Shown: one piece after another, positions 8,580 through 31,228 of the stretch | How the letters are laid out: the number at the start of each line of letters is the position of its first letter | Numbering within the stretch: the first letter of the stretch is position 1 | From: Acidobacteriota bacterium | GTDB taxonomy: Bacteria; Acidobacteriota; Thermoanaerobaculia; UBA2201 | Assembly: GCA_037441225.1 (NCBI GenBank) | Contig: JBBISU010000020.1 | Coordinates: 1 to 50,741, forward strand | Length of the DNA stretch: 50,741 nucleotides | Direction: 5' to 3' | Program-made: the position numbers and the translations under genes | Notes under the pieces: model-generated | What the model was told of the DNA's origin: nothing | The model's database searches: none | The model's input: the letters and a program-made list of their open reading frames with translations, nothing else

Positions 8580-8589
8580 GAGGTAAAAT

Positions 8590-9597: not shown

Positions 9598-9664
9598 AAT
9601 TGGGCAAAAAACCCATTAGATGGGTGAAATAACCCATAATCTTTAAAATTCTCTCAAAATAACT

Positions 9665-9681
9665 TGGCATAAAAATTGCAT
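9665..9681 (+). promoter_or_regulatory. Sigma54 (-24/-12) promoter P2
   Basis: TGGCAT-AAAAA-TTGCAT. A strong AGGAGG Shine-Dalgarno lies at 9705-9710 and the ATG at 9718. Confidence 0.75.
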
Positions 9682-9717
9682 TATTTTTCTAAAACTTTAA
9701 AGAAAGGAGGTTTATAA

Positions 9718-12899: not shown

Positions 12900-14389
12900 A
12901 AAGACTAATATTTTTAATTTTTTTTCCTTCTTTTCTACTTTCCCAATGGGAAGTAAAATATACCTACCACAATCTTTCATCTTCAGGTTTAGGAAAAATT
13001 AAGTCAGAAAAGACAAAGGATATCTGTGGCTTTTGTCACACACCACACAATGCAGATCCAGAAGTACCTCTTTGGGGCTTTAAAATTTCCCCAGCAAATT
13101 ATAACTTATATTTTTCTCCTTCTCTGGATTCTGTATTAGAGCAACCAGGTGGTTCTTCCGTATTATGTCTTTCCTGCCATGATGGAACAATTGCTTTTTT
13201 GAGCAAAAATAATGAAAAAGAGATTTTACCAAAAAGCTTCAAGGGCTCTATGGATTTTGATTTAAGTGGCTCCCATCCAATTTCCTTTTTAATTGATGAT
13301 TCTTTTATAAGCCAAAACAATAAAAAGGATATGCTCTTAAAAAATTTAAAGGAAATTAAAATTTCCTTTGATGAAAAGGCAATAAAAGATGATAATAAAA
13401 TGGAGTGTACAACCTGTCATGATCCCCATAAAAACACCTTTCCTGAAGGGGAAGTGCCTTTTGGCAGAATGGAAAAATTTAATATCCTTTGCACATCCTG
13501 TCATATTTCACAAATTTTAAAACATGAAGACAAATTTTATCTGCCAAAGGAATGCATAACCTGTCATAAAGCACATGGAGAAAAGGGAACAATGCTTTTA
13601 AAAACAAAAGAACCTTCTCTTTGTTTTGAATGCCATGGGAATTCCGTTGATAGAGAAAAGGCATTAAAAGATGGTATGATCTCCTATAATTCTAACCCAA
13701 AAGAAGTTCTGTACTCTTTTTCACTTCCTTATAACCATCCTATATCTAATGGTTGCACAATTTGCCATAAATTGCATAAAGTTGAAAAAGAATATGAAAT
13801 TTGTGAAGAATGCCATAAAAATAATCCTATTTATTCTTCACCAGCATCACAGCATCCAGTATATCCCTCTGAAAATGTATTAAAATGTTCTAATTGTCAT
13901 AGAGGTAGTGACGAAAATTTAGGAAAAGGTGTCCATGGCTCCCTTTATAAAGGGCTTGTCTATAAAAATTATGAAACAGAAGATGGGAAAGGAGAAAGTA
14001 AAGAAACCTATGCTTTTTGCTATTCCTGCCATAAAAGAGAAGAGATATTAGAAAATAGTAAGTTTAGTTTGCATAAAAAACATATTGTTGATGAAAGAAC
14101 CTCTTGCTATACCTGTCATTCAAGCCATGGGTCTATTTTTTTGCCACATCTTTTAACCTTTGAAGATAAAATTAGGGAGGATAGGATAGGACCCACTAGT
14201 GATGGGATTTTAAGATATGAAAAATTTGGGGATGGAAGTGGTGCTTGCTATCTTACTTGCCATAATTTTGAACATAATGGTTTGGTTTATGGAGAAAATG
14301 CTCTTATCAAAAATTCAGAAATTCTAATAAGAACAAAATTTGGAATAAAAAAAACAAAATCCAAATTAAAAATATTAAAAGGGGAATAA
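12896..14389 (+). CDS. Multihaem c-type cytochrome, 11 CXXCH + 1 CX3CH
   Basis: Signal peptide. I counted 11 CXXCH plus CYLTCH (14246-14263). The N-terminal four-haem module is collinear with the 220-aa tetrahaem. Confidence 0.9.
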   Translation: MKRLIFLIFFPSFLLSQWEVKYTYHNLSSSGLGKIKSEKTKDICGFCHTPHNADPEVPLWGFKISPANYNLYFSPSLDSVLEQPGGSSVLCLSCHDGTIAFLSKNNEKEILPKSFKGSMDFDLSGSHPISFLIDDSFISQNNKKDMLLKNLKEIKISFDEKAIKDDNKMECTTCHDPHKNTFPEGEVPFGRMEKFNILCTSCHISQILKHEDKFYLPKECITCHKAHGEKGTMLLKTKEPSLCFECHGNSVDREKALKDGMISYNSNPKEVLYSFSLPYNHPISNGCTICHKLHKVEKEYEICEECHKNNPIYSSPASQHPVYPSENVLKCSNCHRGSDENLGKGVHGSLYKGLVYKNYETEDGKGESKETYAFCYSCHKREEILENSKFSLHKKHIVDERTSCYTCHSSHGSIFLPHLLTFEDKIREDRIGPTSDGILRYEKFGDGSGACYLTCHNFEHNGLVYGENALIKNSEILIRTKFGIKKTKSKLKILKGE

Positions 14390-14393
14390 ATGC

Positions 14394-14410
14394 TGGCATA
14401 AGAATTGCAT
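14394..14410 (+). promoter_or_regulatory. Sigma54 (-24/-12) promoter P3
   Basis: TGGCAT-AAGAA-TTGCAT, starting 5 nt after the upstream stop codon and ending 17 nt before ATG 14427. Confidence 0.75.
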
Positions 14411-14426
14411 ATATTTTTATAGAGAT

Positions 14427-17400: not shown

Positions 17401-17450
17401 GGTACATAATTTATCCCCTTTCTTTAAATGGTGAAAGAGGTATGCCATGA
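14427..17450 (+). CDS. Large secreted modular protein: two Ig/PKD-like modules, central NHL propeller, two ~100-aa FN3-like modules, C-terminal beta-rich region; no haem motif
   Basis: Signal peptide. Repeated INSFS...L..A.L.L.AYDPD modules, NHL units (GEGNFKKASGLAVYQNEIYAGDVGHGRVNVFDYNGN and others), and a repeated P..G......P.L......DPD...LYY.FE.Y module at about 15920-16570. Confidence 0.75.
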   Translation: MRYKVLFLLLFSFEIFGNQNPIINSFSASSYTLLPGATADLNLEAYDPDCPSSCTSGCGQYIRADLTNWSSNGGSFLNINNGTSSSPYNASAQWQAPLQEGTYNISIQISDSGTFLCGGRLSASSTIQITVTQNLNNPPVINSFSISENPILLNSSAILNVSAYDPDGDPISYEFSTNLGEIHPISEGVAEFIAPSTPGIANISCKVQDDKGAFTVKDLKVYITGVVPEKSIKMEGLTNYKISSDNYGFVYVPTNKNFIYVYNLNYGSLLKKILAPFVVAVSIDWNGNIFASFGNNLKLLSREGDTILTFNLQGNFEDITDVFSDNLNHKYLCLLSSQGKIAIFDENGNLERIFGGIGDGEGNFKKASGLAVYQNEIYAGDVGHGRVNVFDYNGNFIRSFGQRGGEDGEFVQISSLDFDLDGNLYVIDTFKSQASVFDFNGNLKEIFGKYGNETGSFIQPISISSNKNFGKILVLNSGKNSVEIFNLYSNSNPPANNIPSVPEPISPLNGTSFPKNSNVELILRKSFDPDFQELYYSFELYEEKNNKDELLASWFIKGESNEISVDATPFLSKAGNYKWRGRAFDSIDWSEWFEFQSFTINTGNPNNPPSMPSLLYPQEGSEVDTLEPTLTISNSKDPDNDPLYYIFEIYLHNGTEGLFMVYKSDPISQGNGLTSFKVPEGLLSLSQQVFWRAAAFDGYLYSEYTPYFTFFTPPLPIPSSEEVGNLPEGDSTRPYILNFEIGPNGEDTKVYFQIFGSFNENEIFLIVNNNYKHPLGPYNNESWSFTESFLIPKEELKNNENNRISFENQTNKNWGLRKVTLSPPDKITLNAIYYNTVIDLQISAKCKNSEKIEIYKAIGEPNYFNKVNEINCFEGILRDTGLQNGITYFYFAIKKDSEGFESERSNIVFGIPQATSTTPVTDLRIIKEGNNVKILWTPITNEPAIQYYEIYKDDFSNFFPDTQNFTNLYTTKSPYEGSFIDYDELLNPENIWYIIYPLSLNGERGMP

Positions 17451-18478
17451 GGTTTTTAATAATTATCCTTTTATTTCCATGTATAATTTTTTCTGTTGAT
17501 CCACCCCATTGGTCTTCTGCTTCCACTTATGAAGATTGTGATTCATCCTGTCATATTGTCCATTCTTCCCTTGGCTCTTCTTTAACTCAAGCAACTTCTA
17601 ATGTAAATTCCTGCCTTGCTTGCCACAATCCCACAGGACAGGCATCAAATCTTCCAATATCCTTAGAAGAAAGAGCAAATCCAAATTTTGGTGGAAGGCA
17701 TCATTCTTTTGATGTAAATGCAGTAAATCTAAGCTATGGGGCTGATTTGCCTCAAAATAATCAAATGCTTCCAAGGATTATGGAATCAAAAATTGTATGC
17801 TCTACCTGCCATAATCAACACACAGCTTCTTCTTCATTAGGTGGAACTGCAAGGATATCACAAGCAAGAAAAATTGCAGGAAGTGGGACTGGTACAATGA
17901 TATCTGGTGGAAATTATACAGGGACAAATGGAATATGGTATTTAATTGAAATTGATTCCCAAGGAAGTCAAGCAACAGCAACTTTTAAATGGTCAAAGGA
18001 CAATGGTTTGACATGGGTTCAACAAAATGTTAATTGTGGTAATGGAAATCCAGTGAATTTAGATAATGGAACACAAGTAACCTTTTCTGGTGGTGCAGGT
18101 GCTTTTCAATTAGGTGATAGGTGGGAATTTTATGCTTCTTATCCTTTTTTAAGAGTAAAATTAGATTCAGGAGATAACATAGCAGGTGATAGGTTTTGCA
18201 GAGATTGCCACAGGTCAATGGTTATGACCCATATGGATGTTGAAAATTATGATGGTACAAAGAAAAGCCATCCCATTGGAATTGTTTTAAATGCAAATGG
18301 AATGGGCTATGATAGGACTTCTCCCCTTGATGGAAATGGAAATCCTCAAGGTGGGCTTGGGGAAGATAATATAAAGTCCAATAACTTAAAATTAGATGGT
18401 AATGGGAATTTGCAGTGTTTAACTTGCCATAATGTCCATTATGCAGATTCAAATACAATAACAGAGGATCTGCCATGA
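17447..18478 (+). CDS. Secreted c-type cytochrome, 4 CXXCH + 1 CX3CH, with a central non-haem beta-rich insert
   Basis: Signal peptide. CLACH, CSTCH, CRDCH and CLTCH plus CDSSCH (17537-17554). Gly/Thr/Asn/Ser-rich. Confidence 0.85.
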   Translation: MRFLIIILLFPCIIFSVDPPHWSSASTYEDCDSSCHIVHSSLGSSLTQATSNVNSCLACHNPTGQASNLPISLEERANPNFGGRHHSFDVNAVNLSYGADLPQNNQMLPRIMESKIVCSTCHNQHTASSSLGGTARISQARKIAGSGTGTMISGGNYTGTNGIWYLIEIDSQGSQATATFKWSKDNGLTWVQQNVNCGNGNPVNLDNGTQVTFSGGAGAFQLGDRWEFYASYPFLRVKLDSGDNIAGDRFCRDCHRSMVMTHMDVENYDGTKKSHPIGIVLNANGMGYDRTSPLDGNGNPQGGLGEDNIKSNNLKLDGNGNLQCLTCHNVHYADSNTITEDLP

Positions 18479-21400
18479 AAAAGTTTTTATTTTTTCTATT
18501 AATTTTCCCTTTACATTCTTTTTCTGATACATTAAATTATACCTTTAATTTTGCTTCTTCTTCTGAAGGTTTTACTGCAACTACTGGCGGACAATCAACA
18601 GCTTCCTTTGATTCAGGAAATGGAAATCCAGCCGGCTCTATTTATACCCAGATTACAGGGAGAAGAAGGACAAATTCAAATTATTGGGAATGGACAGGGA
18701 CTTTTGAAGATTTGGGTGTCCCTTCTTCATCAATTATTACAGCCATCCAGCTTACAGGGGCATATAACAGATGCACAGTTTACTCAACAGGGCAACAATC
18801 CACAGCAGGTCCTTATGAGCTTAGAGATTCAACTGGGGCAACAGTCCTTGCAACTCTATGGGCAGGAAGGGATTTTTCAGCTGTAGATCCCTCTTGGGTT
18901 TTTGTATCTGGTTCAAACCAAATCCTTTCTGATATTCCATCAAATACTACAATTAAAATAAGATTGAACAATACTTTAAGGACTGGAAATTCAAATTCCG
19001 CACGGGTTACCCTTTATGATGACCAAATTTCTTTGACAATTACTTATCAATCAGCAGCAAATAATTATGTAACAATTGGTACAATTTCTGCAAATGTGAA
19101 TAGCTGTACTCAAATAACTGCCCAAGCAACCTTCACAGATGATGCAAATGGTAATAGCACTACAACCTTTGAATATAATACTTCAAACAACTGGCCTGGA
19201 ACAGTTGCTTGTTTAAATTTAACAGGTTCTTCTCCAAGAGAATGTATAATACAAAATTTACAAAATGACACAGATTACTGGATAAGGGTAACTTTTAATG
19301 ATATTGATGGGGTTGTTGGAACAAACCCACAGGTTATAGGACCTTACAGAACATACAATTGCCAAACAGTTGTATCCAGTGCAACAGCAAATGTTAATTC
19401 TTGCAGTCAAATTACAATTTCTGCTCCTTTTTCAGGTGATTGGAACCAAAATAGTTCAACAAACTTTGAAATCCAGCAAAATTGTACTGGAAGTTTTTCT
19501 TCCCTTTGCTCAAATGTTTCAGGTTCAAGTCCAAGGGTTTGTGTTGCAAACTCTTTGATAGAAAATACAAATTATTGCTTTAGAATAACTTTTCAAGATA
19601 CTGATGGAGTTGTTGGTACAAACCCACAAACAATTGGTCCTTATACAACCCCTCCTTGTACACAAACAGGTACAACAATAATTCAAAATAATGTATATAT
19701 AGAAAATTGCAGACAACTTAAAGCCCTTGGATTTTTTTCAGGAGATGGTGATTTAGATGGCTCACTGCTGGTTGAATATAATAACATAAATAACTGGCCA
19801 GGAAACATTGCTTGTAATCAAATAACAGGGATTTCACCAAGGCAATGCTTGATCTCAAACCTTACAGCTGATACTGACTGGTGGGTAAGGTTTACTTATA
19901 CAGACCCTGATGGAGTTTTAGGGACAAATCCAGAAGTTTTGGGTCCTTTCCACACACCCCTTTGTGGGGCAGATCAAGCAAGCCCAACAATTACAGTTCT
20001 TTCTCCAAAAAAGGGAGCTATAATTGGTGGGACAGAAAGGTTAAAAATACAGGCTTATGATGCAGGTGGAATTTCTTCTGTTTCTGTTTCAATAAATGGA
20101 GGATCTTATCAAAGTGCTACCTTAAATGGAAATTATAATTGTGGTACAAATTGTGGAATTTATGAATATGATTTTGATACAACCCTTTTATCAAATGGAG
20201 AAACAACAATAACAATTAAAGCACAAGATACCTCTTCAAATTTAAGTTTTACAAGCATCAGTGTTAATATAAAAAATTCAGGTGGAAAACCCCAAGGCTC
20301 TGGTCTTCTTTTAAGAAGAAGCCATGGGAGCCAAATTTGTATTGATTGCCATAACCTTCCTTCCCATTCCAGCCAACACACTGGCACAAAATATGGTTCT
20401 TGGTCTATTGACTGCTTAACCTGTCATACACCTCATTATACAACAAATATTTACCTTATAAATGAATATATAAGGACACCAAATAGTGGTTTGAAAAATG
20501 TAATTTTCAGAGTAGATGATAAAACAGGTGGAACAAATCCACAATTAAGCTATATTGGTGCTTATGATATAAATGGCATACCTTATGATGATGGTATATG
20601 TGAGGTCTGCCATACAAAAACAAACCATTATAGAAACGATGCATCAGGTGGTGACCATACTCACAATCAAAATTCAAGGTGTGTAAATTGCCATCAACAC
20701 TCAAAGGGGTTTGCAGCAGCAGGTTGTAATGGATGCCATAAAGCACCACCCAGTGTTGGGAAGCATTTAAAGCATGATGAAGTTGGACAAGTTCCTTCAT
20801 CTTATACTGAAACTTCTTCCCATGCAACTCAAACCCAATATGGTTTTTCTTGTGCAAAGTGCCATTCTGGGGCCCATACAAATGATACCCATTCTGGAAC
20901 TATAACAGATCCTTATCAAGTGGAAGTAATTTTTGATTCAACCCAAGACCCAAAAAATCCTTTAGGTACTTATAGCCAAAAATACCCAGATGCTTTAGAT
21001 CAAGGAACTGATACAACAAAATACTGGTCTTGGACCCAATCAATTGCAGGAACTGATGGAAATTGTTCAAACCTTTACTGCCATTCAAATGCAAACCCTG
21101 TGGGTGGAAATGTCTCTTATACAACTGTTAAATGGAATGAAACAAATGCAACAAATTGCCAGTCCTGCCACAATACTATTGCAAGGGATGATAGTGGAAA
21201 TTTGACTGATTTGTCATTAAAACATGGAAAGCATATCTCTTATAATGGCGAAGCTTCAACATATAATTATACCTGTGATGAATGCCATAGCTTAACAATT
21301 GTTGACAATTCAAAAGCTCCTTGGCTTTTAGATTCAAATGATTTAAAGGATAAAAGATACCATGTCAATGGCTTAAAAGATGTCTCCTTTTCTCCAACTG

Positions 21401-24372
21401 CTTTTTCATCAAACATAATTGATCAATCAAGTGGTTCTTATTCAAGTGGTATATGTTCAAATACATACTGCCATTCTAAAGGGACTTCAACTTCTTCTCC
21501 TTTTTCTCCTCCAAATGTAAATCTGGTCTGGAATACAGGAACTTCAAGTTGTGATTCCTGCCATGGAGGAAATGCAACTTCTACAAATATTATAAATACA
21601 AATGCTCACAGTGCCCATATAAACCAAGCAAGTTATTTAGGTTCAAATTTTATGTGTTATATGTGCCATCAAAACACTGTATCTTCTGTTTCTGATAATA
21701 CAATTAATAATTATAGCTTTCATGTAAATGGTTTAAAGGATGTTGTAATTTATAATGGTGGAAACTATAACAGTTATCAATGCACAAACACTTATTGCCA
21801 TTCAAATGGGACAGAGGTAAATGATTATGTAAATCCACCACTATGGAATTCTGGTACAACCCTTCCAAATGATTGCAAACAATGTCATGGAACAGAAGGA
21901 GGATCCATTGCAGGTGAACCAAGGTATGCAAACAATACTGGGTCTTATGATACAAGAAATAGCCACCAAATTTCAGACCATATTTCCTCTTCTTTAAGTT
22001 GCTATAAATGTCATTCAAGCACAGTAAATTCTTCTGGAAATTTAATTTCAGGTGGGTTGCATTTAAATGGCACAAGGGATGTTTCAAATTCAACTTTTAT
22101 TACATCTTATAATGAAACAAATGAAACCTGCCAAAACATTTGCCATTCAAATAACTCAGTTGTATGGGGGGATACAGTTTCTTGCAGGGATTGTCATTTA
22201 AAAACAGGTGCAGGCAATCAAGATGTAAATGATTATACATGGGATAATTTAATGGAAGATGGAACTGGAATAGTTGCAATTATTGATGGAGAGGACTGGG
22301 CAAATTATGGCCATGGAAATTCCACTGGTTTCCCCTTGGAATCTGCAAACTCTGCTCCAAATTTTGATTCTGGGGGAAGGGATGGATGTTTATATTGCCA
22401 TACAAAATCAGTTTCCCATAACAATTCAAATAATCCTTTCAGGTTAGCAAACATTGGAGCAGGAAACACAGCTGCATCAAAAAATGGTGTTTGTACAATT
22501 TGCCATGGTGGAAGTGGCTACAATCCTGGAACTGGCCTTGTTGATTCTTCAAAAGATATAGATTATTACCATTATGGTTTAGACCATGGAACAACAGGAG
22601 GAAAGGGTTTAGGTGGACAGCTTTGCTGGGATTGTCATGATCCCCATGGGGATTATAACTATTCTGCAAATCAAAGACTTGGTTTTATGTTCCAATATGA
22701 ACCAGTTGAAAATCATAATGATGCAGGAGGAAATACAACTGAATGGGGCATTCCAACCCAAATTGCTTCAACACCTGATTTTAGAAGGTTAAGGGATGGA
22801 ATAGATGCTTGGGGATGGGGGGATTATGTAATTAACAACAGTGGTGGGGTCTGTCAGGTCTGCCATGATGCAACAAACCACTTTTTAAAAACAACAAATT
22901 GGGCATCTGATTCAACCCATTTTCCAGGAAACAGATGCACTGAATCTTGTCATAAACACAAAACTGTAACCTTTGCTCAAAATGAAGCTTTCAAACCAGC
23001 AGGTGGAACCTGCAAAGGTTGCCATTCCACAAGGACTGGCAGCATACCAAGAGCACAAATTGTAGGAGGTACAGCTGGTTCTGAAGGTGATGATTTTATA
23101 AGGCCCTCAAGACATGTATCAGATGGGACAACCTCAGAAATTGTAACAGATTTCGATTGTATCGTTTGCCATATGGAAGGGGATCCTTCTTCTACAACAG
23201 GAAATATCCTGACAAATCCAACTTACCATGGTGCTGATGGTGGCTCCACAACAGTTGATTTAAGGAATGTGGACAGCAGAAACTCTGTTGCTTCTGCCTG
23301 GCCTGGAAAGAGATTATCAACTTGGTCTGCTACAACAACTGACAGGGATAATATGGACAATTTCTGTTTAAACTGCCATGATTCTGATAATTCTTCTTCT
23401 ACTTCAAACTGTGGTGGTTCTTGGGATATTGCAGTAAATTCAACAAATTCTGGGCTTTTAACAGGAGGTCCTGTTTCAAGAAGGTTTACACCTTTTAATA
23501 CCCAAGATACACAACAAAATGCCCATGAAATAGATACAGACATAAGGAATGCAAGGGCAAATTCTGGGGTGGTAGATGTAAGGGGACAATTTAATTATCA
23601 AAATTTAACAGGTAAAAACTGGGCAAGCCATCATAATTTAAGACAGTTTACAAAAAGGTATTCTACAAGAAATACAACTTACTGGCCTAATGCTGCCTGG
23701 ACAACTTACACAACAAAGGAAGGGCAAAATATTCAAACAGCAGGTGAGATAGCAGGTCTTCATTGTTCAGATTGCCATTTAAATGAAGCAAATGCCCATG
23801 GTACAAGAAATACACCTTACATCCTTTCAGATATGAATGGAAATGACACAACCTATCAAAATCCTGGTTATACCAATGGAACAGATATTTGTTTTAAATG
23901 CCATAACAGAGCTGTTTATGGAGGAGGAAATTCAGATACTGGAAATTCCAGGACAAGGGCACATAATCAAAGTGGGGCAAGGTGTAATAATTGGTGGAGT
24001 TCTCAAAATAAAGGGGTTGCAACAATGGGTTCCACTTCTCAAATTACAAATAATTCAGGTACAACAAATCTTCCCTGCCTTGGCTGCCATGGTGGAATGA
24101 GTTTTGGAATGATCCATGGGACAAATTCAACTTACAATCCAGGTAAATCCACAACATGGACATCAAAAAGATACAGGTTTATGGGTTCTGGTGGTTCTAT
24201 GAGATGGTATTCTCCAAATAATTCAACAACAGGAAATGATACTTCTTGGGAAGGAACTTCAAATATTGGCTGTTATACTATAAATGCAGTTGATGCCTAT
24301 GGTGGTTGCACTCAACATGGTGGTGGTTTCCAGAATGTAGCAGCAAACAGGGCAAGACCCCTTGAATATTGA
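18475..24372 (+). CDS. Giant (1965 aa) secreted multihaem cytochrome: ~600-aa non-haem N-terminal region (unknown domain, three FN3-like repeats, Ig-like domain) followed by 23 CXXCH + 3 CX4CH + 2 CX3CH
   Basis: Signal peptide MKKFLFFLLIFPLHSFS. Motifs counted by eye. Three copies of the HxNGxxDV...CxNxYCH...W...CxxCH unit known from Geobacter CxxxxCH...CXXCH repeat cytochromes. Confidence 0.9.
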   Translation: MKKFLFFLLIFPLHSFSDTLNYTFNFASSSEGFTATTGGQSTASFDSGNGNPAGSIYTQITGRRRTNSNYWEWTGTFEDLGVPSSSIITAIQLTGAYNRCTVYSTGQQSTAGPYELRDSTGATVLATLWAGRDFSAVDPSWVFVSGSNQILSDIPSNTTIKIRLNNTLRTGNSNSARVTLYDDQISLTITYQSAANNYVTIGTISANVNSCTQITAQATFTDDANGNSTTTFEYNTSNNWPGTVACLNLTGSSPRECIIQNLQNDTDYWIRVTFNDIDGVVGTNPQVIGPYRTYNCQTVVSSATANVNSCSQITISAPFSGDWNQNSSTNFEIQQNCTGSFSSLCSNVSGSSPRVCVANSLIENTNYCFRITFQDTDGVVGTNPQTIGPYTTPPCTQTGTTIIQNNVYIENCRQLKALGFFSGDGDLDGSLLVEYNNINNWPGNIACNQITGISPRQCLISNLTADTDWWVRFTYTDPDGVLGTNPEVLGPFHTPLCGADQASPTITVLSPKKGAIIGGTERLKIQAYDAGGISSVSVSINGGSYQSATLNGNYNCGTNCGIYEYDFDTTLLSNGETTITIKAQDTSSNLSFTSISVNIKNSGGKPQGSGLLLRRSHGSQICIDCHNLPSHSSQHTGTKYGSWSIDCLTCHTPHYTTNIYLINEYIRTPNSGLKNVIFRVDDKTGGTNPQLSYIGAYDINGIPYDDGICEVCHTKTNHYRNDASGGDHTHNQNSRCVNCHQHSKGFAAAGCNGCHKAPPSVGKHLKHDEVGQVPSSYTETSSHATQTQYGFSCAKCHSGAHTNDTHSGTITDPYQVEVIFDSTQDPKNPLGTYSQKYPDALDQGTDTTKYWSWTQSIAGTDGNCSNLYCHSNANPVGGNVSYTTVKWNETNATNCQSCHNTIARDDSGNLTDLSLKHGKHISYNGEASTYNYTCDECHSLTIVDNSKAPWLLDSNDLKDKRYHVNGLKDVSFSPTAFSSNIIDQSSGSYSSGICSNTYCHSKGTSTSSPFSPPNVNLVWNTGTSSCDSCHGGNATSTNIINTNAHSAHINQASYLGSNFMCYMCHQNTVSSVSDNTINNYSFHVNGLKDVVIYNGGNYNSYQCTNTYCHSNGTEVNDYVNPPLWNSGTTLPNDCKQCHGTEGGSIAGEPRYANNTGSYDTRNSHQISDHISSSLSCYKCHSSTVNSSGNLISGGLHLNGTRDVSNSTFITSYNETNETCQNICHSNNSVVWGDTVSCRDCHLKTGAGNQDVNDYTWDNLMEDGTGIVAIIDGEDWANYGHGNSTGFPLESANSAPNFDSGGRDGCLYCHTKSVSHNNSNNPFRLANIGAGNTAASKNGVCTICHGGSGYNPGTGLVDSSKDIDYYHYGLDHGTTGGKGLGGQLCWDCHDPHGDYNYSANQRLGFMFQYEPVENHNDAGGNTTEWGIPTQIASTPDFRRLRDGIDAWGWGDYVINNSGGVCQVCHDATNHFLKTTNWASDSTHFPGNRCTESCHKHKTVTFAQNEAFKPAGGTCKGCHSTRTGSIPRAQIVGGTAGSEGDDFIRPSRHVSDGTTSEIVTDFDCIVCHMEGDPSSTTGNILTNPTYHGADGGSTTVDLRNVDSRNSVASAWPGKRLSTWSATTTDRDNMDNFCLNCHDSDNSSSTSNCGGSWDIAVNSTNSGLLTGGPVSRRFTPFNTQDTQQNAHEIDTDIRNARANSGVVDVRGQFNYQNLTGKNWASHHNLRQFTKRYSTRNTTYWPNAAWTTYTTKEGQNIQTAGEIAGLHCSDCHLNEANAHGTRNTPYILSDMNGNDTTYQNPGYTNGTDICFKCHNRAVYGGGNSDTGNSRTRAHNQSGARCNNWWSSQNKGVATMGSTSQITNNSGTTNLPCLGCHGGMSFGMIHGTNSTYNPGKSTTWTSKRYRFMGSGGSMRWYSPNNSTTGNDTSWEGTSNIGCYTINAVDAYGGCTQHGGGFQNVAANRARPLEY
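19070..19960 (+). repeat. Three tandem ~95-aa coding repeats (FN3/Ig-like) inside the giant cytochrome gene
   Basis: The units ANVNSC.QIT....F..D.N.NS.T.FE......W.G...C.N.TGSSPR.C....L...T.Y..R.TF.D.DGVVGTNPQ.IGPY.T recur three times at the protein level. Confidence 0.65.
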
Positions 24373-25505
24373 TGTTATTCTTAATTCTCTTTTCTTTAAT
24401 AGAAGTTGAAGGTTATTTATCTTTAAATGCAATCCAGGGCTTTATAATTGAAAAGGACTCAAAATTTTACCCATTCATAACAAAGCCCTATACTTTATAT
24501 TTAAATTTTAAAAGCCCCAATGAATTAGAAATTGGGGATAAATTAAAAGTATATTTTAAAGAAGAAAAAGGTGTCCCCATTGCTTTTAAAATTGAAAAAT
24601 TAAAAAAGATTTACATAAATCCAAAATTTGAAATAAAAGAAAGTTTTTTTAAAGAAAATTTAGAAAATTATGAATTGGTTGATTTAAGGGAAGAAGAAGA
24701 ATTTCTCAAAATCAACATTCCTTCTTCAAAAAGAGAGTTTATAAAGAACAATAAAGAAATTATTTTTTATTGCAATGATTATTATGATGAAAAATGTATA
24801 GAAAAATTTCAAAATATTTTAATTAAAGAAAAAGGAAATTTTTTATTTTTTCAAGGTGGGATAAAAGAATGGAATAAAAGGGGAAATTACTTTTATACAG
24901 AGCCAGAAATTTTTTTAAAAAAAGAAAAGATTAATTTTTATCTGGTAGATTTGAGAAATAAGGAAGAAAGGGAAAAGGGGGTTGTGCCTTTTTCTTTTTA
25001 TGCAAATCTGGAAGAAATGGACTGGAGGGATTTTTCATCAGAAGAAGGAATGGTTCCTCTTTTGTTTATAGGAAGAGATGAAAATGATGAAAGACCTGTA
25101 AAAGCAGCAAAAAAGGTTTTAAAGTGGCGATATGATAATAATAAAAATGGATATGTTTCTATTTTAAAGGGCGGGATTGAAGGACTTAAAAAAATTGGCT
25201 TTAATTTAGAAAAAAAAGAAATTTTGTCCTTTAAAGTTTCAAATTTAAAAAAGGAAGGGGAAATTAAATTAGAAGAATTAAAAAAAGAAAATTATTTTGT
25301 TGATTTAAGAGATGAAGGGGATGCAAATTTCAAATCTGCAAAAAATTTAAAACTTTCTGAGTTGGATGAAAAAATTGAAATGCTTCCAAAAGATAAAGAA
25401 ATAATCTTATTTTGTTATGAAGGAAAAAGGGCAGAAGTAGCTTTTCATATTTTAAAAAAATTGGGTTTTGATGTAAAATTTATAAATGAACCACCATTTT
25501 TTTAA
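24369..25505 (+). CDS. Exported protein with three rhodanese-homology domains (only the last has a catalytic-type Cys loop)
   Basis: Hydrophobic N-terminus. Three units of the type Y.LVDLR...E...G.IP..... The third carries the loop CYEGKRA (Cys at 25413-25415). ATG 24372 overlaps the TGA of the giant cytochrome gene. Confidence 0.75.
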   Translation: MMLFLILFSLIEVEGYLSLNAIQGFIIEKDSKFYPFITKPYTLYLNFKSPNELEIGDKLKVYFKEEKGVPIAFKIEKLKKIYINPKFEIKESFFKENLENYELVDLREEEEFLKINIPSSKREFIKNNKEIIFYCNDYYDEKCIEKFQNILIKEKGNFLFFQGGIKEWNKRGNYFYTEPEIFLKKEKINFYLVDLRNKEEREKGVVPFSFYANLEEMDWRDFSSEEGMVPLLFIGRDENDERPVKAAKKVLKWRYDNNKNGYVSILKGGIEGLKKIGFNLEKKEILSFKVSNLKKEGEIKLEELKKENYFVDLRDEGDANFKSAKNLKLSELDEKIEMLPKDKEIILFCYEGKRAEVAFHILKKLGFDVKFINEPPFF

Positions 25506-25980
25506 AATCTTTTTCATAATTTTAATATTTTTTATAATTTCTCTTTTCTTATTTGATAAGGACTGGCTTTTGCAGTTAAATTTTTTGAAAGAGAAAGAAA
25601 AAAAAGAAATAGAAAAAACAATTGAAATTTATAATAAAATTTTAATGGACTTTTATGCTACAAGTGGGAATCCATCTTTAATAGATGAAGTTCCAGCAGC
25701 AAAAATTTTAAAACATGAAATCTTTAAAGAAATTGGATTTTTATCTATGAATGAAAGGGTTCTTGTATGGGATCTGGCAAGTATTAAAATTGAAAAAATA
25801 AGTTTTTATGGATTTAAAAAAGCAAAGGCAAGGGTTTTAGAAGAATGGAACTATCAATTTCAGGATTTATATACAAGAAAGCCCAGTTCAGAAGTAAGGG
25901 GAAAAACAGTTAAAATAGAATATGATTTAAGAAAAGTAAAAAATAAATGGATAATTTTTGAATGGTTTCCATTAAGTTAG
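25486..25980 (+). CDS. Membrane-anchored protein of unknown function (paralogue of 26768-27277)
   Basis: One N-terminal TM helix and a ~130-aa soluble domain. Collinear with the 169-aa protein (I..YN..L...Y...G......PA...LK.E........EEW). Confidence 0.55.
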   Translation: MNHHFFKIFFIILIFFIISLFLFDKDWLLQLNFLKEKEKKEIEKTIEIYNKILMDFYATSGNPSLIDEVPAAKILKHEIFKEIGFLSMNERVLVWDLASIKIEKISFYGFKKAKARVLEEWNYQFQDLYTRKPSSEVRGKTVKIEYDLRKVKNKWIIFEWFPLS

Positions 25981-26771
25981 CACTTTTTTTTATAATTTTT
26001 TTATTTTCAATTTTTAATTATTTTATAAATAAAAATTTTTGGTCTTTAACTTACATTAAAACTTTTTTAATTTTTTATTTTTTATTTATTTTTATATTTT
26101 TACTTTCATCAATCTTAAAGTATTTGAAAAGAGAAAGAATAGCAGGACTTTTTAACCTTTCCATCTTTTTCTTTTCTTCTTTTATTTTTCTTTCTCTATC
26201 CTATTATAACAAAATTGAATTAAGCATTGGAGAAGGTGAAGGTTCTTATAACTTAGAAAAAAATGAAGGGGGGTTTCTTTCGAAAGGAAAAAATTATGAT
26301 TTAAATTTAAAAGAAATTAATGAAAAATCAATAAAGATTTTTTTTGAAAAAAAAGAATTTAATTTAAAAGAAAAGGAAGGAATTTATTTTAAAGATAAAT
26401 ATATTAAATTGAAAGGAATTTTTAAAAGTATTGAGATAAATGTATTTCAAGAAGGGGGATATAGCGAAGGAGTTTTTTTTAAATTAAAAGATGAAGAAAA
26501 CTCTTACTTTCCTTTATCAACCTTGCCATATAGAATTTATATTAAAAATATAAAAGATTTTTATAAGATAAAAATATATAGGAATAAAACTCAAGTTTTA
26601 GAAAAAGAAATTAAATTAGGTGAAATTTTTCCTTTTGATTTTTTAAACCTTAAATTAAATGAAGGTCCCCTTTGGGCTTTGTTAGAGGTAAAAAATTATT
26701 TTTCTTTTTTTTATTTTTTAATACCTTTGATATTTTTTATCCTTTCTTTTTATGATAAACTAAAAAAATGA
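25962..26771 (+). CDS. Polytopic membrane protein, possibly a shortened and degenerate Ccs1/ResB-like protein
   Basis: N-terminal TM helices, a soluble loop starting with SIGEGEG (compare VGEGEE in the 386-aa ResB-like protein) and a C-terminal TM helix. It lacks the TM His seen in both ResB-like proteins (HFSF). Confidence 0.35.
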   Translation: MVSIKLALFFIIFLFSIFNYFINKNFWSLTYIKTFLIFYFLFIFIFLLSSILKYLKRERIAGLFNLSIFFFSSFIFLSLSYYNKIELSIGEGEGSYNLEKNEGGFLSKGKNYDLNLKEINEKSIKIFFEKKEFNLKEKEGIYFKDKYIKLKGIFKSIEINVFQEGGYSEGVFFKLKDEENSYFPLSTLPYRIYIKNIKDFYKIKIYRNKTQVLEKEIKLGEIFPFDFLNLKLNEGPLWALLEVKNYFSFFYFLIPLIFFILSFYDKLKK

Positions 26772-27277
26772 AAGATTTAATTTTAATAATTTTAATTTCA
26801 ACAATTTTATTTTTTACCCTTGCAATAATTGAGGACTGGCAAAACTTTAAATTCCTTTTTTTTAAGCAAGAAATAAAAAAATTGGAATTTTCAGATGAAA
26901 TTTTAAAAACAATAGATAAATACAATACATTATTAGAGCATATATACAGATTTGAAGGTGATGAAAGGTTCCTCCAGCGCCTTCCTGCAAGTGATTTTTT
27001 AAAAGAAGAAACCTTAGAAGATTTATACTATTTAAATTCTTACCAAATAATACAGGAAATTAAATTAAAAAAGATAGAGATTTTAAAGAAAAATTTATTA
27101 AATGAAAACCAGGCAATTGTATCAACCTTAGAAGAATGGGAAATTTTTTATAAAGATAAAACTGGCCATCCCCTTCAAAAAAAGCCAATGATTTTTTCTT
27201 TAAACAATGATTATTATTTAAGGAAAGGGATTTCAGGATGGCTTATAGAAAAAATTGAAATTCCTGATGAAATTTAA
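26768..27277 (+). CDS. Membrane-anchored protein of unknown function (paralogue of 25486-25980)
   Basis: Same architecture and collinear conserved positions as the 164-aa protein. It overlaps both neighbouring genes. Confidence 0.55.
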   Translation: MKDLILIILISTILFFTLAIIEDWQNFKFLFFKQEIKKLEFSDEILKTIDKYNTLLEHIYRFEGDERFLQRLPASDFLKEETLEDLYYLNSYQIIQEIKLKKIEILKKNLLNENQAIVSTLEEWEIFYKDKTGHPLQKKPMIFSLNNDYYLRKGISGWLIEKIEIPDEI

Positions 27278-28508
27278 AAAAATATTTTTTTCTTTAAAAT
27301 TTTCTGCTATCTTAATTTTTCTTTTGGTTTTTTTTCTTTTTTTAAATGTCTTTTTGCCTCAAGAAAGAGTCCTTGGAAAAGAAAAAATCAAAGAAATTGT
27401 AGGAGAAAATAGCTTCTTAAAATTCTTTTTTTACAAACTAAATTTTAAAGATATAACCTCATCGCCATTATTTTTTCTTATTTTATTACTCTTTTATCTA
27501 CAGCTAATTTTTTTTATTTTCAGATATTTTAAGTTAACATTAAAAAGGATAAAAATTAAAGAACCAAATTTTAAAAATTGGAAATCTTTAAAAATAAAAG
27601 GAGAGATAGAAGAAATAAAGAATTTTTTAAAAGAAAAGAGCTGGAAAGAATTTCAAATAAAAGAAAATAAATTATATTATGTTATAAATGAACTTTCCCC
27701 TTTAGGGTTTTTATTTTTTCATTTTTCTTTCCTCTTATATTTGTTGAGTGGATTTTTGTTATATTATACAAGATCTGAAAAGGAATTCTTTTTAGCTTTG
27801 AATCAGACAGTTTCACTGGAAGATGAAAGCTGGGTTTTGCAAAAGAGAAAACCAAAGATAAAAGAAAGTTTAAAAAACCTTAAAGTTTATTTAAAAAATG
27901 TAAATTTAAATCTATATAAGGAAGAACCTCTTTTATTTAAAACAGAAATAGTTTTATGGCATAATAACAAAATGATTAATGGAAATGCTGAAATAAATAA
28001 ACCTTTTAAGTATAAAACTTTAAAAGTTTATCCAGTTTTTCAAGATGATGCTTTTTTAATTCAAGTGGAAGATAAAGAGGGCTATATAATTGAAAAACCA
28101 ATTATTTTTTCTAATTGTTCAAAAAAAATTGGCAGTGCCTATAGAATTTTGGATAAAATAGAAGGAGAAATTGGATGTGAAAAAGTGCCTTATTTAAATT
28201 TATCTTACAATGGAAAAAAAGAAAAACTCCAGATGATAGAAGGAAGGGAAATAAATTTTGGTGACATAAGAGTAAAAATAATAAAAAAAGTTCCTTGGGT
28301 AAAATTTAGGGCAATAAATGAGTCAGGTTCCTTTCCATTATTTCTTGGTTTTATTTTAAGTATTTTAGGTCTCATCTTTAGATTTCTTTTCCCAAATAGA
28401 GAAATTGTTATATCAAATTCTTTAATTTACTATAAAGCAGATTATTTCCCTTCTTCTTTGAAAGAATTAATTGAAAAATTTTGTGAGGTGAAAAATGGAG
28501 CTGGTTGA
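27255..28508 (+). CDS. resB: Cytochrome c biogenesis System II protein Ccs1/ResB (copy 1)
   Basis: ResB-like N-terminus (FSLKFSAILIFLLVFFLFLNVFLPQ), a TM helix with His (FFHFSFLLYLLSG), a large soluble loop and a C-terminal TM helix. It directly precedes ccsA. Confidence 0.7.
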   Translation: MKFLMKFKKIFFSLKFSAILIFLLVFFLFLNVFLPQERVLGKEKIKEIVGENSFLKFFFYKLNFKDITSSPLFFLILLLFYLQLIFFIFRYFKLTLKRIKIKEPNFKNWKSLKIKGEIEEIKNFLKEKSWKEFQIKENKLYYVINELSPLGFLFFHFSFLLYLLSGFLLYYTRSEKEFFLALNQTVSLEDESWVLQKRKPKIKESLKNLKVYLKNVNLNLYKEEPLLFKTEIVLWHNNKMINGNAEINKPFKYKTLKVYPVFQDDAFLIQVEDKEGYIIEKPIIFSNCSKKIGSAYRILDKIEGEIGCEKVPYLNLSYNGKKEKLQMIEGREINFGDIRVKIIKKVPWVKFRAINESGSFPLFLGFILSILGLIFRFLFPNREIVISNSLIYYKADYFPSSLKELIEKFCEVKNGAG

Positions 28509-29277
28509 AGTTTTATCTTTTTATATTTCCCTTTTTCTTTATTTATTTTCAAATATTTATGGTTATTTTAATTATTTTTTTAAAAAAGATTTTAATTTTA
28601 AGAGAATTTATAAAATTACTCTTTTAGCATTCTTTTTTCATTTCTTTACAATAATTTTTAGAACAATCCTTACAAAACATATACCAGTAATAGGAAACTA
28701 TGAAAATATTTTAATGGGTTCTTTCTTTCTTGTAATATTGATTTTCTTTTTCTTTAGGAAAGAAAAATGGTTTTTGCCTTTTCTTTTTAGCTTATCTTTA
28801 AATATTATATTATTAGGTATGGCAATCTTTGCAGATCCTGAAAAAAAACCCTTATTTGCTGCTTTAAAATCCTTCTGGCTTTATATCCATATCCTCTTTG
28901 CCTGGTTTGCTTATGGTTCATTTACAGTAGCAGCAGGGGTAAGTATTACTTATCTTATAAAAAAGGAAGAGTCCTTAGAAGAGTTAATTTTTAAATTAAC
29001 TGCATTTGGGCTTGTGACAGATGCTTTAATGATAATTGCTGGTTCAATTTGGGCAAAGGATTTATGGGGTTCTTATTGGTCCTGGGATCCTGTTGAAACC
29101 TGGTCATTGCTTTCCTTTTTATTATATGGCTTAATATTACACCTTAAAATTACTTTGAAAATAAAAAGAAAAACCTTTGCTTATTTGATTATCTTTTCCC
29201 TCATAACAGTTTTAATTTCTTTTTGGGGTGTAAACTTTTTTATGGAAAAAAGTTTGCATATTTTTAATGTAGGTTAA
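28495..29277 (+). CDS. ccsA: Cytochrome c assembly protein CcsA/ResC (canonical WWD haem-handling motif)
   Basis: Trp-rich motif WAKDLWGSYWSWDPVETWS at 29050-29103, with flanking conserved His residues. Confidence 0.9.
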   Translation: MELVEVLSFYISLFLYLFSNIYGYFNYFFKKDFNFKRIYKITLLAFFFHFFTIIFRTILTKHIPVIGNYENILMGSFFLVILIFFFFRKEKWFLPFLFSLSLNIILLGMAIFADPEKKPLFAALKSFWLYIHILFAWFAYGSFTVAAGVSITYLIKKEESLEELIFKLTAFGLVTDALMIIAGSIWAKDLWGSYWSWDPVETWSLLSFLLYGLILHLKITLKIKRKTFAYLIIFSLITVLISFWGVNFFMEKSLHIFNVG

Positions 29278-29278
29278 A

Positions 29279-30439
29279 ATGTTAAATAGAATTTATAATT
29301 TTATTTCTTCCTTTAAATTATCAATATTTTTAACTATATCCTGTGCCCTTTATTACATTTTTTTATCAATCTGGTCCTTAAAATCACCTTCCATTGTAAT
29401 TCAAAATATATCTAAAATGCTTCCCTTTAAACTGGTATATACTTTTTTACTTATAAATACATTTTTTTGTTTAACTAAAAGGCTTCCAGAACTTTTAAAA
29501 AGCACATCAAAAAATTTAATTTATTTGCCTGAAAACTATGACTGGATTAAGGAAAGAAGAGATGGTAAGATAAAAGAAGGTTTTAAGGTTAAAAAAAGAT
29601 TTTCATCCCTTGGAACAATTTTTTTGCATTTTTCTTTCTTTTTTCTGGCATTGGGATTTTATTTATCCAATCAATCCCACACAACAGGAAAATTTTTAGT
29701 AGGAGAAGGAGAAGAGCTCCTTGTAAATAATGATGAAATAGAAAAGGTTTCACAGCCAAAGCCATTATTTAATGAGTTTCCAGATTTTAAAATAAAATTA
29801 AATAAAATAATTTATAAATTTTGGGGTGAAAAACTCTTATTTAGAGAACTTGAAGGAAAAGGAAAAATAGATGGAAAGGATTTTTCAATAAAGATAAATA
29901 AAATATATCCCTTAAATTTATATAATTTTATAAGAATAACTTCTTTTGGCTATGCTCCATCATACTTACTTTTAATAGAAAATTATCCAAAACCCTTAGA
30001 AGAAGGAGTCATAAAAATTTTTCTTTTTCCTCCTGGTACAAAAAGCTTTTTTAAAACAAAACACTTCCCCCATAAAATTTATTTATCCTTATATCCTGAC
30101 TTTTATGAAGAAAATGGGATTTTCAAAAGCAAATCAATGGAGCCAAAAAATCCAAAAATTTTAATTCAAGTTTATAGAAATAAGGTATTTTTGATGGAAA
30201 AATTAATAAATTTAGGGGATTTAATAAAAATAGAAGAATTTTCAATTGACTTTTTAAATTTATTTCCAATAATAGAAGTGGAAATTGTTCAAGACAAAGG
30301 ATTTTTAATAATATTATTTTCTTTTCTTTTAATTTTAGCTGGCTTACTTTTAAGGTTTTCAGGTAAAAGGGGAGAGATATTGATAAGAAAGGAAGATGGG
30401 GTATATAAAATTTATGGAAAAAATGTAAGGGAGTTTTAA
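29279..30439 (+). CDS. resB: Cytochrome c biogenesis System II protein Ccs1/ResB (copy 2)
   Basis: ResB-like N-terminus (FKLSIFLTISCALYYIFLSIW), a TM His (IFLHFSFFFLALG), a soluble loop and a C-terminal TM helix. It directly precedes the second ccsA-like gene. Confidence 0.65.
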   Translation: MLNRIYNFISSFKLSIFLTISCALYYIFLSIWSLKSPSIVIQNISKMLPFKLVYTFLLINTFFCLTKRLPELLKSTSKNLIYLPENYDWIKERRDGKIKEGFKVKKRFSSLGTIFLHFSFFFLALGFYLSNQSHTTGKFLVGEGEELLVNNDEIEKVSQPKPLFNEFPDFKIKLNKIIYKFWGEKLLFRELEGKGKIDGKDFSIKINKIYPLNLYNFIRITSFGYAPSYLLLIENYPKPLEEGVIKIFLFPPGTKSFFKTKHFPHKIYLSLYPDFYEENGIFKSKSMEPKNPKILIQVYRNKVFLMEKLINLGDLIKIEEFSIDFLNLFPIIEVEIVQDKGFLIILFSFLLILAGLLLRFSGKRGEILIRKEDGVYKIYGKNVREF

Positions 30440-31228
30440 ATGCCTGAATCAAAAATATTTTTATATTTTAGAATTTTTTCTATTTTTTTAAACATCTTTT
30501 CAATATTCTTATTTTTTACAATTAAAGATATAAAAAAGAAAAATCTAATAGGACTCCTAAACTGGCTTTTTTTAATTTTTTTATGGTTTGGGCGACTTTT
30601 TACATCCAAACATTTTCCTTTTTTTGGTGCTTATGAATCCTCTTTAACAATCCTTTTTTTTACAGGAATAATTTTGCTATATTTTAACTTAAAAGAAAAA
30701 CTTCCTTCCTTTTATTTTTACCCCTTCCTATCTTTAGCATTTTTAATCCATTCAGTTTTTTATTCTAAAAATATATGGGCTATGACAATTTCTGAAAAAA
30801 GCATAATAGTATATATACATTTAATTTTTGCTTATCTTTCTTTTGGTTTGAATTTTTTAATCTTTTCATTTTCAATTTTAAAATTAAATAAAAAAGAAAT
30901 AAATTTTTCAATTATAAATAATTTATTAGTTTTTTATTTTTTTTACACTTCAATGCTAATTTTTGGTTTTTTTTATAGATTCTTGCTTTTTGGAAAAGTT
31001 GTTTCTTTTGATCCTGTTGAAACAATACATCTTTCAATGTTTTTGATTTATACAACATTAATTCATATCTCTTATTTTAAAAAGTGGAATGAAGAAAGAA
31101 TAGCAAAATATCAAATCTTTTGTTTTATTTTGTTTTTAATTTCCTATAGAATAATCCTATTTTTCCCTCCAGAGGCAACATATCATATAATAGACATAGA
31201 ATTAAGGATGCATATAATCCCAAAATAA
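30440..31228 (+). CDS. Divergent CcsA-like protein lacking all Trp residues of the WWD motif
   Basis: Same length and TM layout as CcsA, with DPVET conserved. The motif reads YRFLLFGKVVSFDPVETIHL (30974-31033) against WAKDLWGSYWSWDPVETWSL. The flanking His residues are retained (KHFP, YIHLIF, LIHISY). Confidence 0.7.
   Translation: MPESKIFLYFRIFSIFLNIFSIFLFFTIKDIKKKNLIGLLNWLFLIFLWFGRLFTSKHFPFFGAYESSLTILFFTGIILLYFNLKEKLPSFYFYPFLSLAFLIHSVFYSKNIWAMTISEKSIIVYIHLIFAYLSFGLNFLIFSFSILKLNKKEINFSIINNLLVFYFFYTSMLIFGFFYRFLLFGKVVSFDPVETIHLSMFLIYTTLIHISYFKKWNEERIAKYQIFCFILFLISYRIILFFPPEATYHIIDIELRMHIIPK

Follow-up and report, generated by a model that had tools for sequence, protein, structure and literature searches.

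Can a protein of the CcsA family lose all tryptophans (Trp) of its WWD motif and still handle haem, and what would such a protein do beside a canonical copy in a cytochrome gene cluster? The question is raised by a 50,741-nt contig of an Acidobacteriota bacterium (JBBISU010000020.1, assembly GCA_037441225.1, G+C content 28%), the whole of which is called the window here. The best match of its MutS, at 77% identity, is labelled as coming from a Thermoanaerobaculia MAG, with the next ones under 50%, so that the organism is probably an uncultured relative of this acidobacterial class. The window carries two ResB/CcsA pairs, arranged head to tail on the plus strand (ResB1-CcsA1-ResB2-CcsA2, Table 1), which share a plus-strand gene row with five cytochrome genes, and this synteny is kept in relatives. 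In CcmC, CcmF and CcsA the WWD tryptophans are regarded as the defining element in contact with haem. Because changes of the WxWD tryptophans abolish or strongly reduce haem attachment in model enzymes (PMC6299221, which summarises Hamel 2003 together with mutant work on Helicobacter hepaticus and Wolinella succinogenes), the natural Trp-free loop of CcsA2 was unexpected. The answer we favour, with our confidence evenly divided for and against, is that ResB2-CcsA2 would be a functional, remodelled System-II-type (CcsBA-like) haem-handling complex dedicated to maturing the cytochromes of this gene island.

Judged by profile, alignment and predicted fold, CcsA2 is a true CcsA-family protein. It matches the family profile, is polytopic in its predicted fold, keeps the three histidines of the family and is encoded next to a ResB partner, while the Trp-rich WWD motif WAxxxWGxxWxWDxxE.W is missing, with none of its five Trp present. 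In a BLASTP alignment of 248 residues CcsA1 and CcsA2 are 32% identical, and their motifs fall in register. The AlphaFold2 model of CcsA2 (pLDDT 90.4, pTM 0.89) has 8 transmembrane (TM) helices, and its best Foldseek match in the PDB is CcsBA (7S9Y, E 1.8e-4, TMq 0.65, 262 aligned columns). With TIGR03144, the equivalog model for the housekeeping System II CcsB(A), CcsA2 scored 32.3 bits and CcsA1 134.2 bits, both under the cut-off of 187.6; CcsA1 is 45% identical to its counterpart in a locus with 69% GC (L029). The TM histidine His117 of ResB2, the equivalent of TM-His1, is shared by all 18 diverse ResB2-type proteins compared. At the junction of CcsA1 and ResB2 the sequence reads TAA-A-ATG, and at that of ResB2 and CcsA2 the stop codon abuts the start codon (TAA-ATG).

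Translation reproduced exactly the Trp-less CcsA2 motif that an initial annotation, made from the letters of this DNA, had placed at 30974-31033. For the motif of CcsA1, WAKDLWGSYWSWDPVETWSL, the same annotation had the correct start at 29050 and an end at 29103, which is a slip of 6 nt, the true end being 29109. It was also right about the losses in CcsA2, which it described as replacements by F, V, F and I, but not about their count: five Trp are replaced, not four, the additional residue being a Y (W186Y, W191F, W195V, W197F and W203I in CcsA1 numbering). CcsA2 as a whole is not Trp-free, as four Trp lie outside the motif. The alignment of the two proteins further bore out that D-P-x-E and the histidines are kept. 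His127, His209 and His249 of CcsA2 align to His132, His216 and His255 of CcsA1; they are invariant across the CcsA2 clade, and 195 of 203 family sequences share the three histidines. We transferred CcsA2 residues to H. hepaticus CcsBA (7S9Y) through the profile alignment of class II, the Trp-poor group described below. In this mapping Y179, F184, V188, F190 and I196 take the places of W828, W833, W837, W839 and W845, and D191 and E194 those of D840 and E843, which are thereby kept. His127 corresponds to P-His1 and His209 to TM-His2, and His249 stands at the expected position of P-His2. P192 is retained in the loop, and His197 is new in the 0-Trp clade. In CcsBA, W828 and E843 changed to Cys cross-link to haem, which places the loop in contact with the haem periphery (PMC6299221).

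Base-composition bias was considered as a cause of the Trp loss and rejected: CcsA1 from the same genome (28% GC) keeps all five Trp, and relatives at 57-72% GC are without four of the five. Two proteins from the representative library (P0018 and P0053) are further Trp-free relatives with a different loop, FRL[RH]x[YF]GxxGPLDPxExxHL. They too have a new histidine after E-x-x, and one of the two is without the TM-His2 equivalent.

Only ten close relatives of CcsA2 were found among 5.8 billion proteins. All ten members of the clade have the motif YRFxLFG[KS]xxSFDPxExxHx, which holds down to 56% identity, and eight CcsA2 proteins that are 56-85% identical share 91 invariant columns. In the comparison of the window with L004, a relative at 85% identity, the ratio of non-synonymous to synonymous substitution rates (dN/dS) was 0.16 for CcsA2 and 0.125 for ResB2, compared with 0.125 for CcsA1 and 0.24 for ResB1. 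The dN/dS of CcsA2 ranges from 0.16 to 0.36, its reading frame is intact in every orthologue, and ResB2 is conserved more strongly than ResB1 at all sampled distances.

A profile search over 1.84 billion representative proteins yielded only 300 matches, and among the best of them the number of Trp in the WWD motif decreases in steps: five in the canonical form WAxxxWGxYWxWDPxETW, two in a large group with Yxxx[LI][FYH]GxWWxWDPxE, one in a group with Y[KR]F[LM]LFGxAWSFDP and none in the window clade. We calculated a neighbour-joining tree (own implementation) of 203 sequences, comprising 100 canonical sequences and 103 of the Trp-poor type that we call class II. In this tree 100 of the 103 class II sequences fell together, none of the 100 canonical ones fell among them, and the 0-Trp clade was nested in the 1-Trp clade, itself nested in the 2-Trp group. 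By these sequences class II is apparently a large, cleanly separated and undescribed sister clade of canonical CcsA. We found no NCBIfam model that names it and, in our literature search, no description of a Trp-poor CcsA or of its operon. According to the branching order the loss of Trp is stepwise, from five to two to one to none, with CcsA2 as the end point. The first, second and last WWD Trp are already lost in class II, and the remaining two were lost later in the window lineage. Other hallmarks of class II are GHPPxFG, PLTISE[RQ]SxWVDxH and a C-terminal [ST][YF]HxFD...H, and one member (P0037) is a natural fusion of ResB2 and class II CcsA. The class II profile matches CcsBA 7S9Y with an E value of 2e-17; the Trp-less profile alone gave no PDB match, and a profile scan of genome contigs with the Trp-less alignment found no relative.

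We then followed the genes that accompany class II. A degenerate DNA pattern for PLTISE[RQK]SxW[VI][DE]xH, scanned over species-representative genomes, led to 21 loci labelled Actinomycetota, Betaproteobacteria, Deltaproteobacteria, Nitrospirota, Bacillota and Thermoanaerobaculia, and a metagenome scan with the low-Trp alignment to 43 loci. Partner genes were detected with hidden Markov models (HMMs) built from the window clade, with few sequences each. The context of all loci comes from contig fragments of 1-20 kb with mechanically called open reading frames, and the taxon labels are those of the depositors. In the 21 loci a ResB2-type gene is almost always located upstream of the class II CcsA gene, a gene for a small membrane protein, here called 'tail', is often located downstream, and an s1/s3-type gene (Table 1) is sometimes present upstream; a canonical pair and multihaem cytochromes are often near. 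About 20 contigs with 52-72% GC show the order giant cytochrome ... s3, ResB1, CcsA1, ResB2, CcsA2 (1 Trp), 'tail' and a gene for a BchE-like radical SAM enzyme. The same operon order is found in L029-L031 and in the window clade, with hosts that span 28% to 72% GC, and L035 (53% GC) also shares the rhodanese, s1 and s2 genes with the window. Judged from this gene order, the whole operon is ancient. In the Betaproteobacterial loci L010, L012, L017 and L020 the class II CcsA gene is directly followed by one for a canonical-motif CcsA, and one ResB is visible for two CcsA.

The 'tail' protein is CopD-like: 3 of 11 family members match Pfam CopD (best E 1.5e-5) and the NCBIfam CopD model gave E 0.0017, while a search of the PDB with the 'tail' profile returned no match. 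The radical SAM enzyme of the window is an orthologue of the one encoded directly after 'tail' in most related operons, and in more than 20 contigs this gene stands directly downstream of class II CcsA and 'tail'. Orthologues beside class II CcsA are 40-51% identical (49% between the window and L029) and were found in more than 25 loci of several phyla (Betaproteobacteria, Deltaproteobacteria, Bacillota and Actinomycetota, plus many metagenome contigs). They score 383-438 bits on the BchE model TIGR02026, with the next family at about 150 bits. B12-binding and Radical_SAM domains are present, and the BchE equivalog cut-off of 481 bits is not reached. At three loci with a YSSRLHG-type class II protein the module contains a second, different B12 radical SAM gene (L026 7577-8947, L028 7304-8686 and L072 7292-8680), whose product is 22-25% identical to the BchE-like one; L026 also carries two 'tail' genes and a gene for a thioredoxin-like protein. 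A second B12 radical SAM gene of the window (47292-48722, plus strand) was considered as part of the module and rejected. Its product is 32% identical to the first, its best families are HpnJ and BchE at about 220 bits, and it overlaps a beta-ketoacyl synthase gene (48709-49914, plus strand). It is probably lipid-related and separate from the cytochrome module.

Compared with CcsBA or ResB-ResC (7S9Y and 7S9Z, H. hepaticus), ResB2-CcsA2 belongs to the same two families and has the same predicted fold. The four histidines are the same (TM-His1 in ResB; TM-His2, P-His1 and P-His2 in CcsA), the D-P-x-E of the loop persists, fusions occur naturally and the genes are encoded with those of c-type cytochromes. 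The differences are the replacement of all five WWD Trp in CcsA2, the extra conserved His104, His197 and His258, the short ResB2-type proteins (340-450 amino acids), the TIGR03144 scores far under the cut-off and the conserved CopD-like and BchE-like radical SAM partners of class II. W. succinogenes has isoenzymes for particular haem motifs, NrfI for CXXCK and CcsA1 for the CX15CH of MccA. Like the window it has, besides a canonical synthase, a further paralogue encoded next to certain multihaem cytochromes, but the Wolinella isoenzymes keep the WWD Trp, and AAXA mutants of the Wolinella CcsA1 and CcsA2 are inactive (PMC6299221), whereas CcsA2 of the window is without them; moreover, no atypical motif consistently accompanies the window-type paralogue. 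Anammox bacteria, which are rich in multihaem cytochromes, likewise have a second, adjacent CcsA-CcsB pair with an altered WWD motif (Ferousi et al. 2013, PMC4222556). The motif of this pair, WGXXAWGXYFLWDAK(V/L)(V/L)W, however, keeps four or five Trp and is unlike class II in sequence, no radical SAM or CopD-like partner was reported, and we rejected membership of CcsA2 in this group because its motif differs and the Trp are absent. The uet cluster of Tenderiales, for which dedicated ccsAB genes within a cytochrome cluster for extracellular electron transfer have been described, also combines multihaem cytochromes, NHL-repeat beta-propellers and dedicated System II genes in one block, but contains a single ccsAB pair, and neither a Trp-poor paralogue nor a radical SAM gene has been described for it (10.1101/2022.05.06.490989). 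BchE, the anaerobic Mg-protoporphyrin IX monomethyl ester cyclase, is the closest family of the module radical SAM enzyme, with B12-binding and radical SAM domains and a full-length match; the module gene differs in staying under the equivalog cut-off, in lying in haem-handling operons with no photosynthesis genes at the loci, and in its hosts (labelled Thermoanaerobaculia, Actinomycetota, Bacillota, Betaproteobacteria and Deltaproteobacteria).

The island cytochromes contain haem motifs of unusual spacing, and we found all seven CX3CH and CX4CH sites of the initial annotation at the coordinates it gave. Residue shuffles of the five cytochromes gave an expectation of 0.45 CX3CH and 0.45 CX4CH, against 4 and 3 observed. 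Five of the sites belong to the giant cytochrome, whose orthologues conserve them. Over 1250-1780 residues the giant cytochrome of the window is 36-44% identical to its counterparts in L029, L035 and L042, and the window clade, L029/L030, L035 and L042 all retain C[ST]NxYCH(S) sites. By contrast, L038, L044 and L059 have a giant cytochrome with 10 CXXCH and zero CX3/4CH, yet carry the whole module with a 1-Trp CcsA2. Their cytochrome is without the whole CX4CH repeat region (window residues about 780-1375), so that the CxxxxCH/CxxCH repeat block was either deleted or never inserted in these short forms. The expectation that Trp-poor CcsA proteins form a clade which co-occurs with CX4CH cytochromes was therefore borne out as to the clade, and as to the co-occurrence in the window clade, L029, L035 and L042 but not in L038, L044 and L059. 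The spacing at a given haem site is evolutionarily fluid: the window and L035 have CX3 at site 1488 (22936-22953), where the other orthologues have CX2; at site 1219 (22129-22146) the window has CX3, and L029, L035 and L042 have CX4; and at site 1513 (23011-23025) L042 alone has CX4 instead of CX2. At 2-Trp class II loci the neighbouring cytochromes mostly have 6-23 CXXCH and no atypical site, with the exception of three small cytochromes (L066/L068 and L073) with one CX3CH each. CX3CH and CX4CH sites receive their haem from general maturation systems, as in Desulfovibrio cytochrome c3. Both spacings are treated as ordinary minor haem motifs in the literature (10.1101/2024.01.05.574438; PMC10734462), and the eLife 2021 paper on CcsBA reconstitution does not mention CX3/4CH substrates. 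The C-terminus of the giant cytochrome (24271-24318; C1933, C1945 and H1948) shows a further pattern, C-x11-15-C-[ST]-x-H, which is present in 10 of 10 aligned orthologues and kept in the short 10-haem forms too. It is not a standard haem motif and could be a disulfide with a distal ligand, or an unusual cofactor site.

How far do these data allow other explanations of pair 2? A decaying or non-functional duplicate, which the initial annotation had named as the alternative, would account for the missing hallmark tryptophans and for the weak family scores (37 bits with PF01578 and 32 bits with TIGR03144). It is excluded because CcsA2 and ResB2 are under purifying selection with the motif conserved, and we give it hardly any credence: frames are intact, 91 columns are invariant, ResB2 outconserves ResB1, the structure model is confident and the clade is old and widespread; the pseudogene idea was rejected on the dN/dS values. 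The annotation itself had proposed a strongly remodelled lyase dedicated to the CX3CH/CX4CH sites, comparable to the Wolinella isoenzymes. This would fit a pair encoded beside cytochromes with seven such sites, as well as the finding that the 0-1-Trp clade adjoins C[ST]NxYCH giant cytochromes in four divergent lineages while most of the 2-Trp relatives seen adjoin CXXCH-only cytochromes. The co-occurrence of motif and paralogue is real but is not independent evidence, because it reflects the synteny of a single old orthologous cluster. Within the 8-20 kb seen per locus the paralogue is encoded beside cytochromes, but it is not accompanied by an atypical motif wherever it is present: L038, L044 and L059 keep the full module without any CX3/4CH site, orthologous sites switch between CX2, CX3 and CX4, CX3CH also occurs beside 2-Trp members (L066 and L068), and both spacings are listed as ordinary minor motifs. 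The conserved radical SAM and CopD-like partners are left unexplained as well. We regard such a dedication as quite improbable; what stands of the proposal is a conserved, selected and remodelled haem-handling paralogue in a cytochrome island.

The partner genes suggest a different role, in which class II would export, and perhaps attach, an altered haem or tetrapyrrole made in the cytoplasm by the BchE-like enzyme, the WWD loop being remodelled to fit. BchE acts on a porphyrin, and with a BchE-like enzyme conserved in the operon a changed tetrapyrrole has to be taken seriously. The radical SAM gene follows class II CcsA and 'tail' directly in more than 20 contigs and adjoins class II CcsA in no fewer than four phyla, its products match BchE far better than the next family, 'tail' weakly matches CopD, and L026, L028 and L072 hold a second B12 radical SAM gene in the module; in addition, the Cys cross-links of CcsBA W828 and E843 place the loop at the haem periphery (PMC6299221). 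Yet the argument is one of guilt by association, the scores stay under the BchE equivalog cut-off, the Actinomycetota class II loci have no radical SAM gene within 8 kb, and within the window clade the gene is adjacent in the window alone. B12 radical SAM enzymes, moreover, also methylate peptides, lipids and phosphinates, and we know of no modified haem c of the proposed kind. We consider this role unlikely. A full ResB2/CcsA-II/CopD-like/BchE-like route, in which haem would be altered in the cytoplasm, exported and installed at particular positions of the giant cytochromes as a new mode of maturation, seems to us rather unlikely. It could also be that ResB2-CcsA2 no longer attaches haem and acts as a haem-binding relay, reservoir, sensor or scaffold for pair 1. 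The histidines are kept while the Trp essential for attachment are lost (PMC6299221), the low-Trp clade pair is always encoded with a canonical-motif CcsA, and at Betaproteobacterial loci a canonical-type CcsA comes directly after the class II CcsA, with a single ResB visible. System I, after all, employs two WWD proteins in series. On the other hand, at many class II loci no canonical pair lies within the stretch covered, the ResB2::CcsA-II fusion resembles a self-contained CcsBA, and the invariance of D-P-x-E and of the periplasmic histidines fits an active outer haem site. An accessory role of this kind appears very improbable to us.

In the functional haem-handling complex that we favour, ResB2 and CcsA2 would associate and bind haem, which would enter between His117 of ResB2 and His209 of CcsA2, the two TM histidines, and then move to an outer site with His127 and His249 as ligands. 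This outer site would be a Trp-free aromatic/aliphatic platform of Y179, F184, V188, F190, D191-P-x-E194, I196 and His197. From it haem would be handed over to the island cytochromes, in a non-redundant maturation step not done by the neighbouring canonical pair. A trans-membrane haem route with a rebuilt outer site is what the conservation of the histidines, the D-P-x-E core, the natural fusion and the purifying selection together argue for. The special substrate would not be tied to CX3-4CH spacing and may involve a haem modified by the radical SAM enzyme. Several points weigh against this reading. As loss of the Trp inactivates canonical enzymes, a Trp-free synthase would need another mode of holding haem, and the C-terminal segment with His249 reaches a pLDDT of only about 50-60 in the CcsA2 model. 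The radical SAM gene of the window lies on the opposite strand behind a histidine kinase (sensor kinase) gene, and in L001, L002 and L035 none is present within 10 kb. Sampling of class II was biased toward query-like sequences, and on the single contig seen pair 1 could be either the general system or island-specific too.

A selected and widespread clade that has the four histidines but has lost three, four or five Trp suggests that the haem site can be built differently, and class II offers a natural series with 5, 2, 1 and 0 Trp for dissecting the role of these residues. The partnership of BchE-like and CopD-like proteins beside giant cytochromes points to an unstudied maturation step, one that concerns cytochromes thought to carry electrons outside the cell and that may involve new haem chemistry. 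Heterologous expression of such giant cytochromes may need this module.

Table 1. Positions of the genes, motifs and haem sites discussed; coordinates refer to the window unless another locus is named.
Feature	Coordinates	Strand	Details
Multihaem cytochrome	12896..14389	+	11 CXXCH and one CX3CH (CYLTCH, 14246-14263)
Cytochrome	17447..18478	+	4 CXXCH and one CX3CH (CDSSCH, 17537-17554)
Giant multihaem cytochrome, 1965 aa (amino acids)	18475..24372	+	23 CXXCH, 2 CX3CH, 3 CX4CH; CxxxxCH/CxxCH domain repeats (PF09698 / TIGR01904)
CX3CH sites	14246-14263, 17537-17554, 22129-22146, 22936-22953
CX4CH sites	21064-21084, 21454-21474, 21781-21801
Rhodanese-domain protein, 378 aa	24369..25505	+	Pfam PF00581, E 2.4e-17
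s1, 164 aa, paralogue of s3	25486..25980	+	s1 and s3 HMMs cross-match, E 1e-12; conserved in L002-L004 and L035
s2, 269-aa membrane protein, distant ResB-like paralogue	25962..26771	+	no His, no Cys
s3, 169-aa membrane-anchored periplasmic protein	26768..27277	+	weak ARC6-IMS / NTF2-like hint, ARC6-like_IMS E 0.0066
ResB1, 417 aa, partner of CcsA1	27255..28508	+	PF05140 51.7 bits; TM histidine kept in orthologues
CcsA1, 260 aa, canonical motif WAKDLWGSYWSWDPVETWSL	28495..29277	+	PF01578 113.3 bits
ResB2, 386 aa, ResB/CcsB-type partner of CcsA2	29279..30439	+	PF05140 34.3 bits (gathering score 24.6)
CcsA2, 262 aa, class II CcsA	30440..31228	+	8 predicted TM helices; PF01578 37.1 bits, E 3.3e-9 (gathering score 29.9)
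Remodelled WWD motif of CcsA2, YRFLLFGKVVSFDPVETIHL	30974..31033	+	exact translation
'tail', small CopD-like membrane protein, 126 aa	31250..31630	+	invariant NNxxHD ... G..R ... E ... KH
BchE-like B12-binding radical SAM enzyme, 480 aa	32996..34438	-	TIGR02026 385 bits, E 4e-115, full length
BchE-like gene at other loci	L029 11192-12685; L042 11217-12659; L024 5973-7430; L017 5909-7417
Short forms of the giant cytochrome	L044 155-4681; L059 3-4601; L038 3-1892

The gene row of the island (6942-31630) is located entirely on the plus strand and runs from a 21-haem cytochrome over NHL-repeat propellers, smaller cytochromes, the 1965-aa cytochrome, the rhodanese and s1/s2/s3 to the two ResB/CcsA pairs and 'tail'. 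Its first part (6942-17450) holds the 21-haem cytochrome, two NHL-repeat propeller proteins, a 1007-aa propeller/cadherin-like protein and a 568-aa protein with zero cysteine and no family match, a layout reminiscent of porin-cytochrome and uet-type extracellular electron transfer clusters. The position of the rhodanese gene between the giant cytochrome and the maturation genes is conserved in the window clade and L035. The HMM of s2 cross-matches ResB2-type proteins of L026 and L042. The paralogues s1 and s3 are both membrane-anchored periplasmic proteins, s3 with an invariant GHPL. Genes of the s type stand upstream of ResB genes at many related loci; s3, detected with its own HMM, precedes ResB in L011, L021, L024, L029, L035, L038, L041, L042, L044, L055 and L059. 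Finally, an AhpC/TSA-redoxin (thioredoxin-like) gene (39026-39799, plus strand) is located 8 kb downstream of the module, beside ABC transporter genes. Its product could be a thiol-reducing partner of the ResA/CcsX type, and a similar redoxin gene is found within the L026 module.

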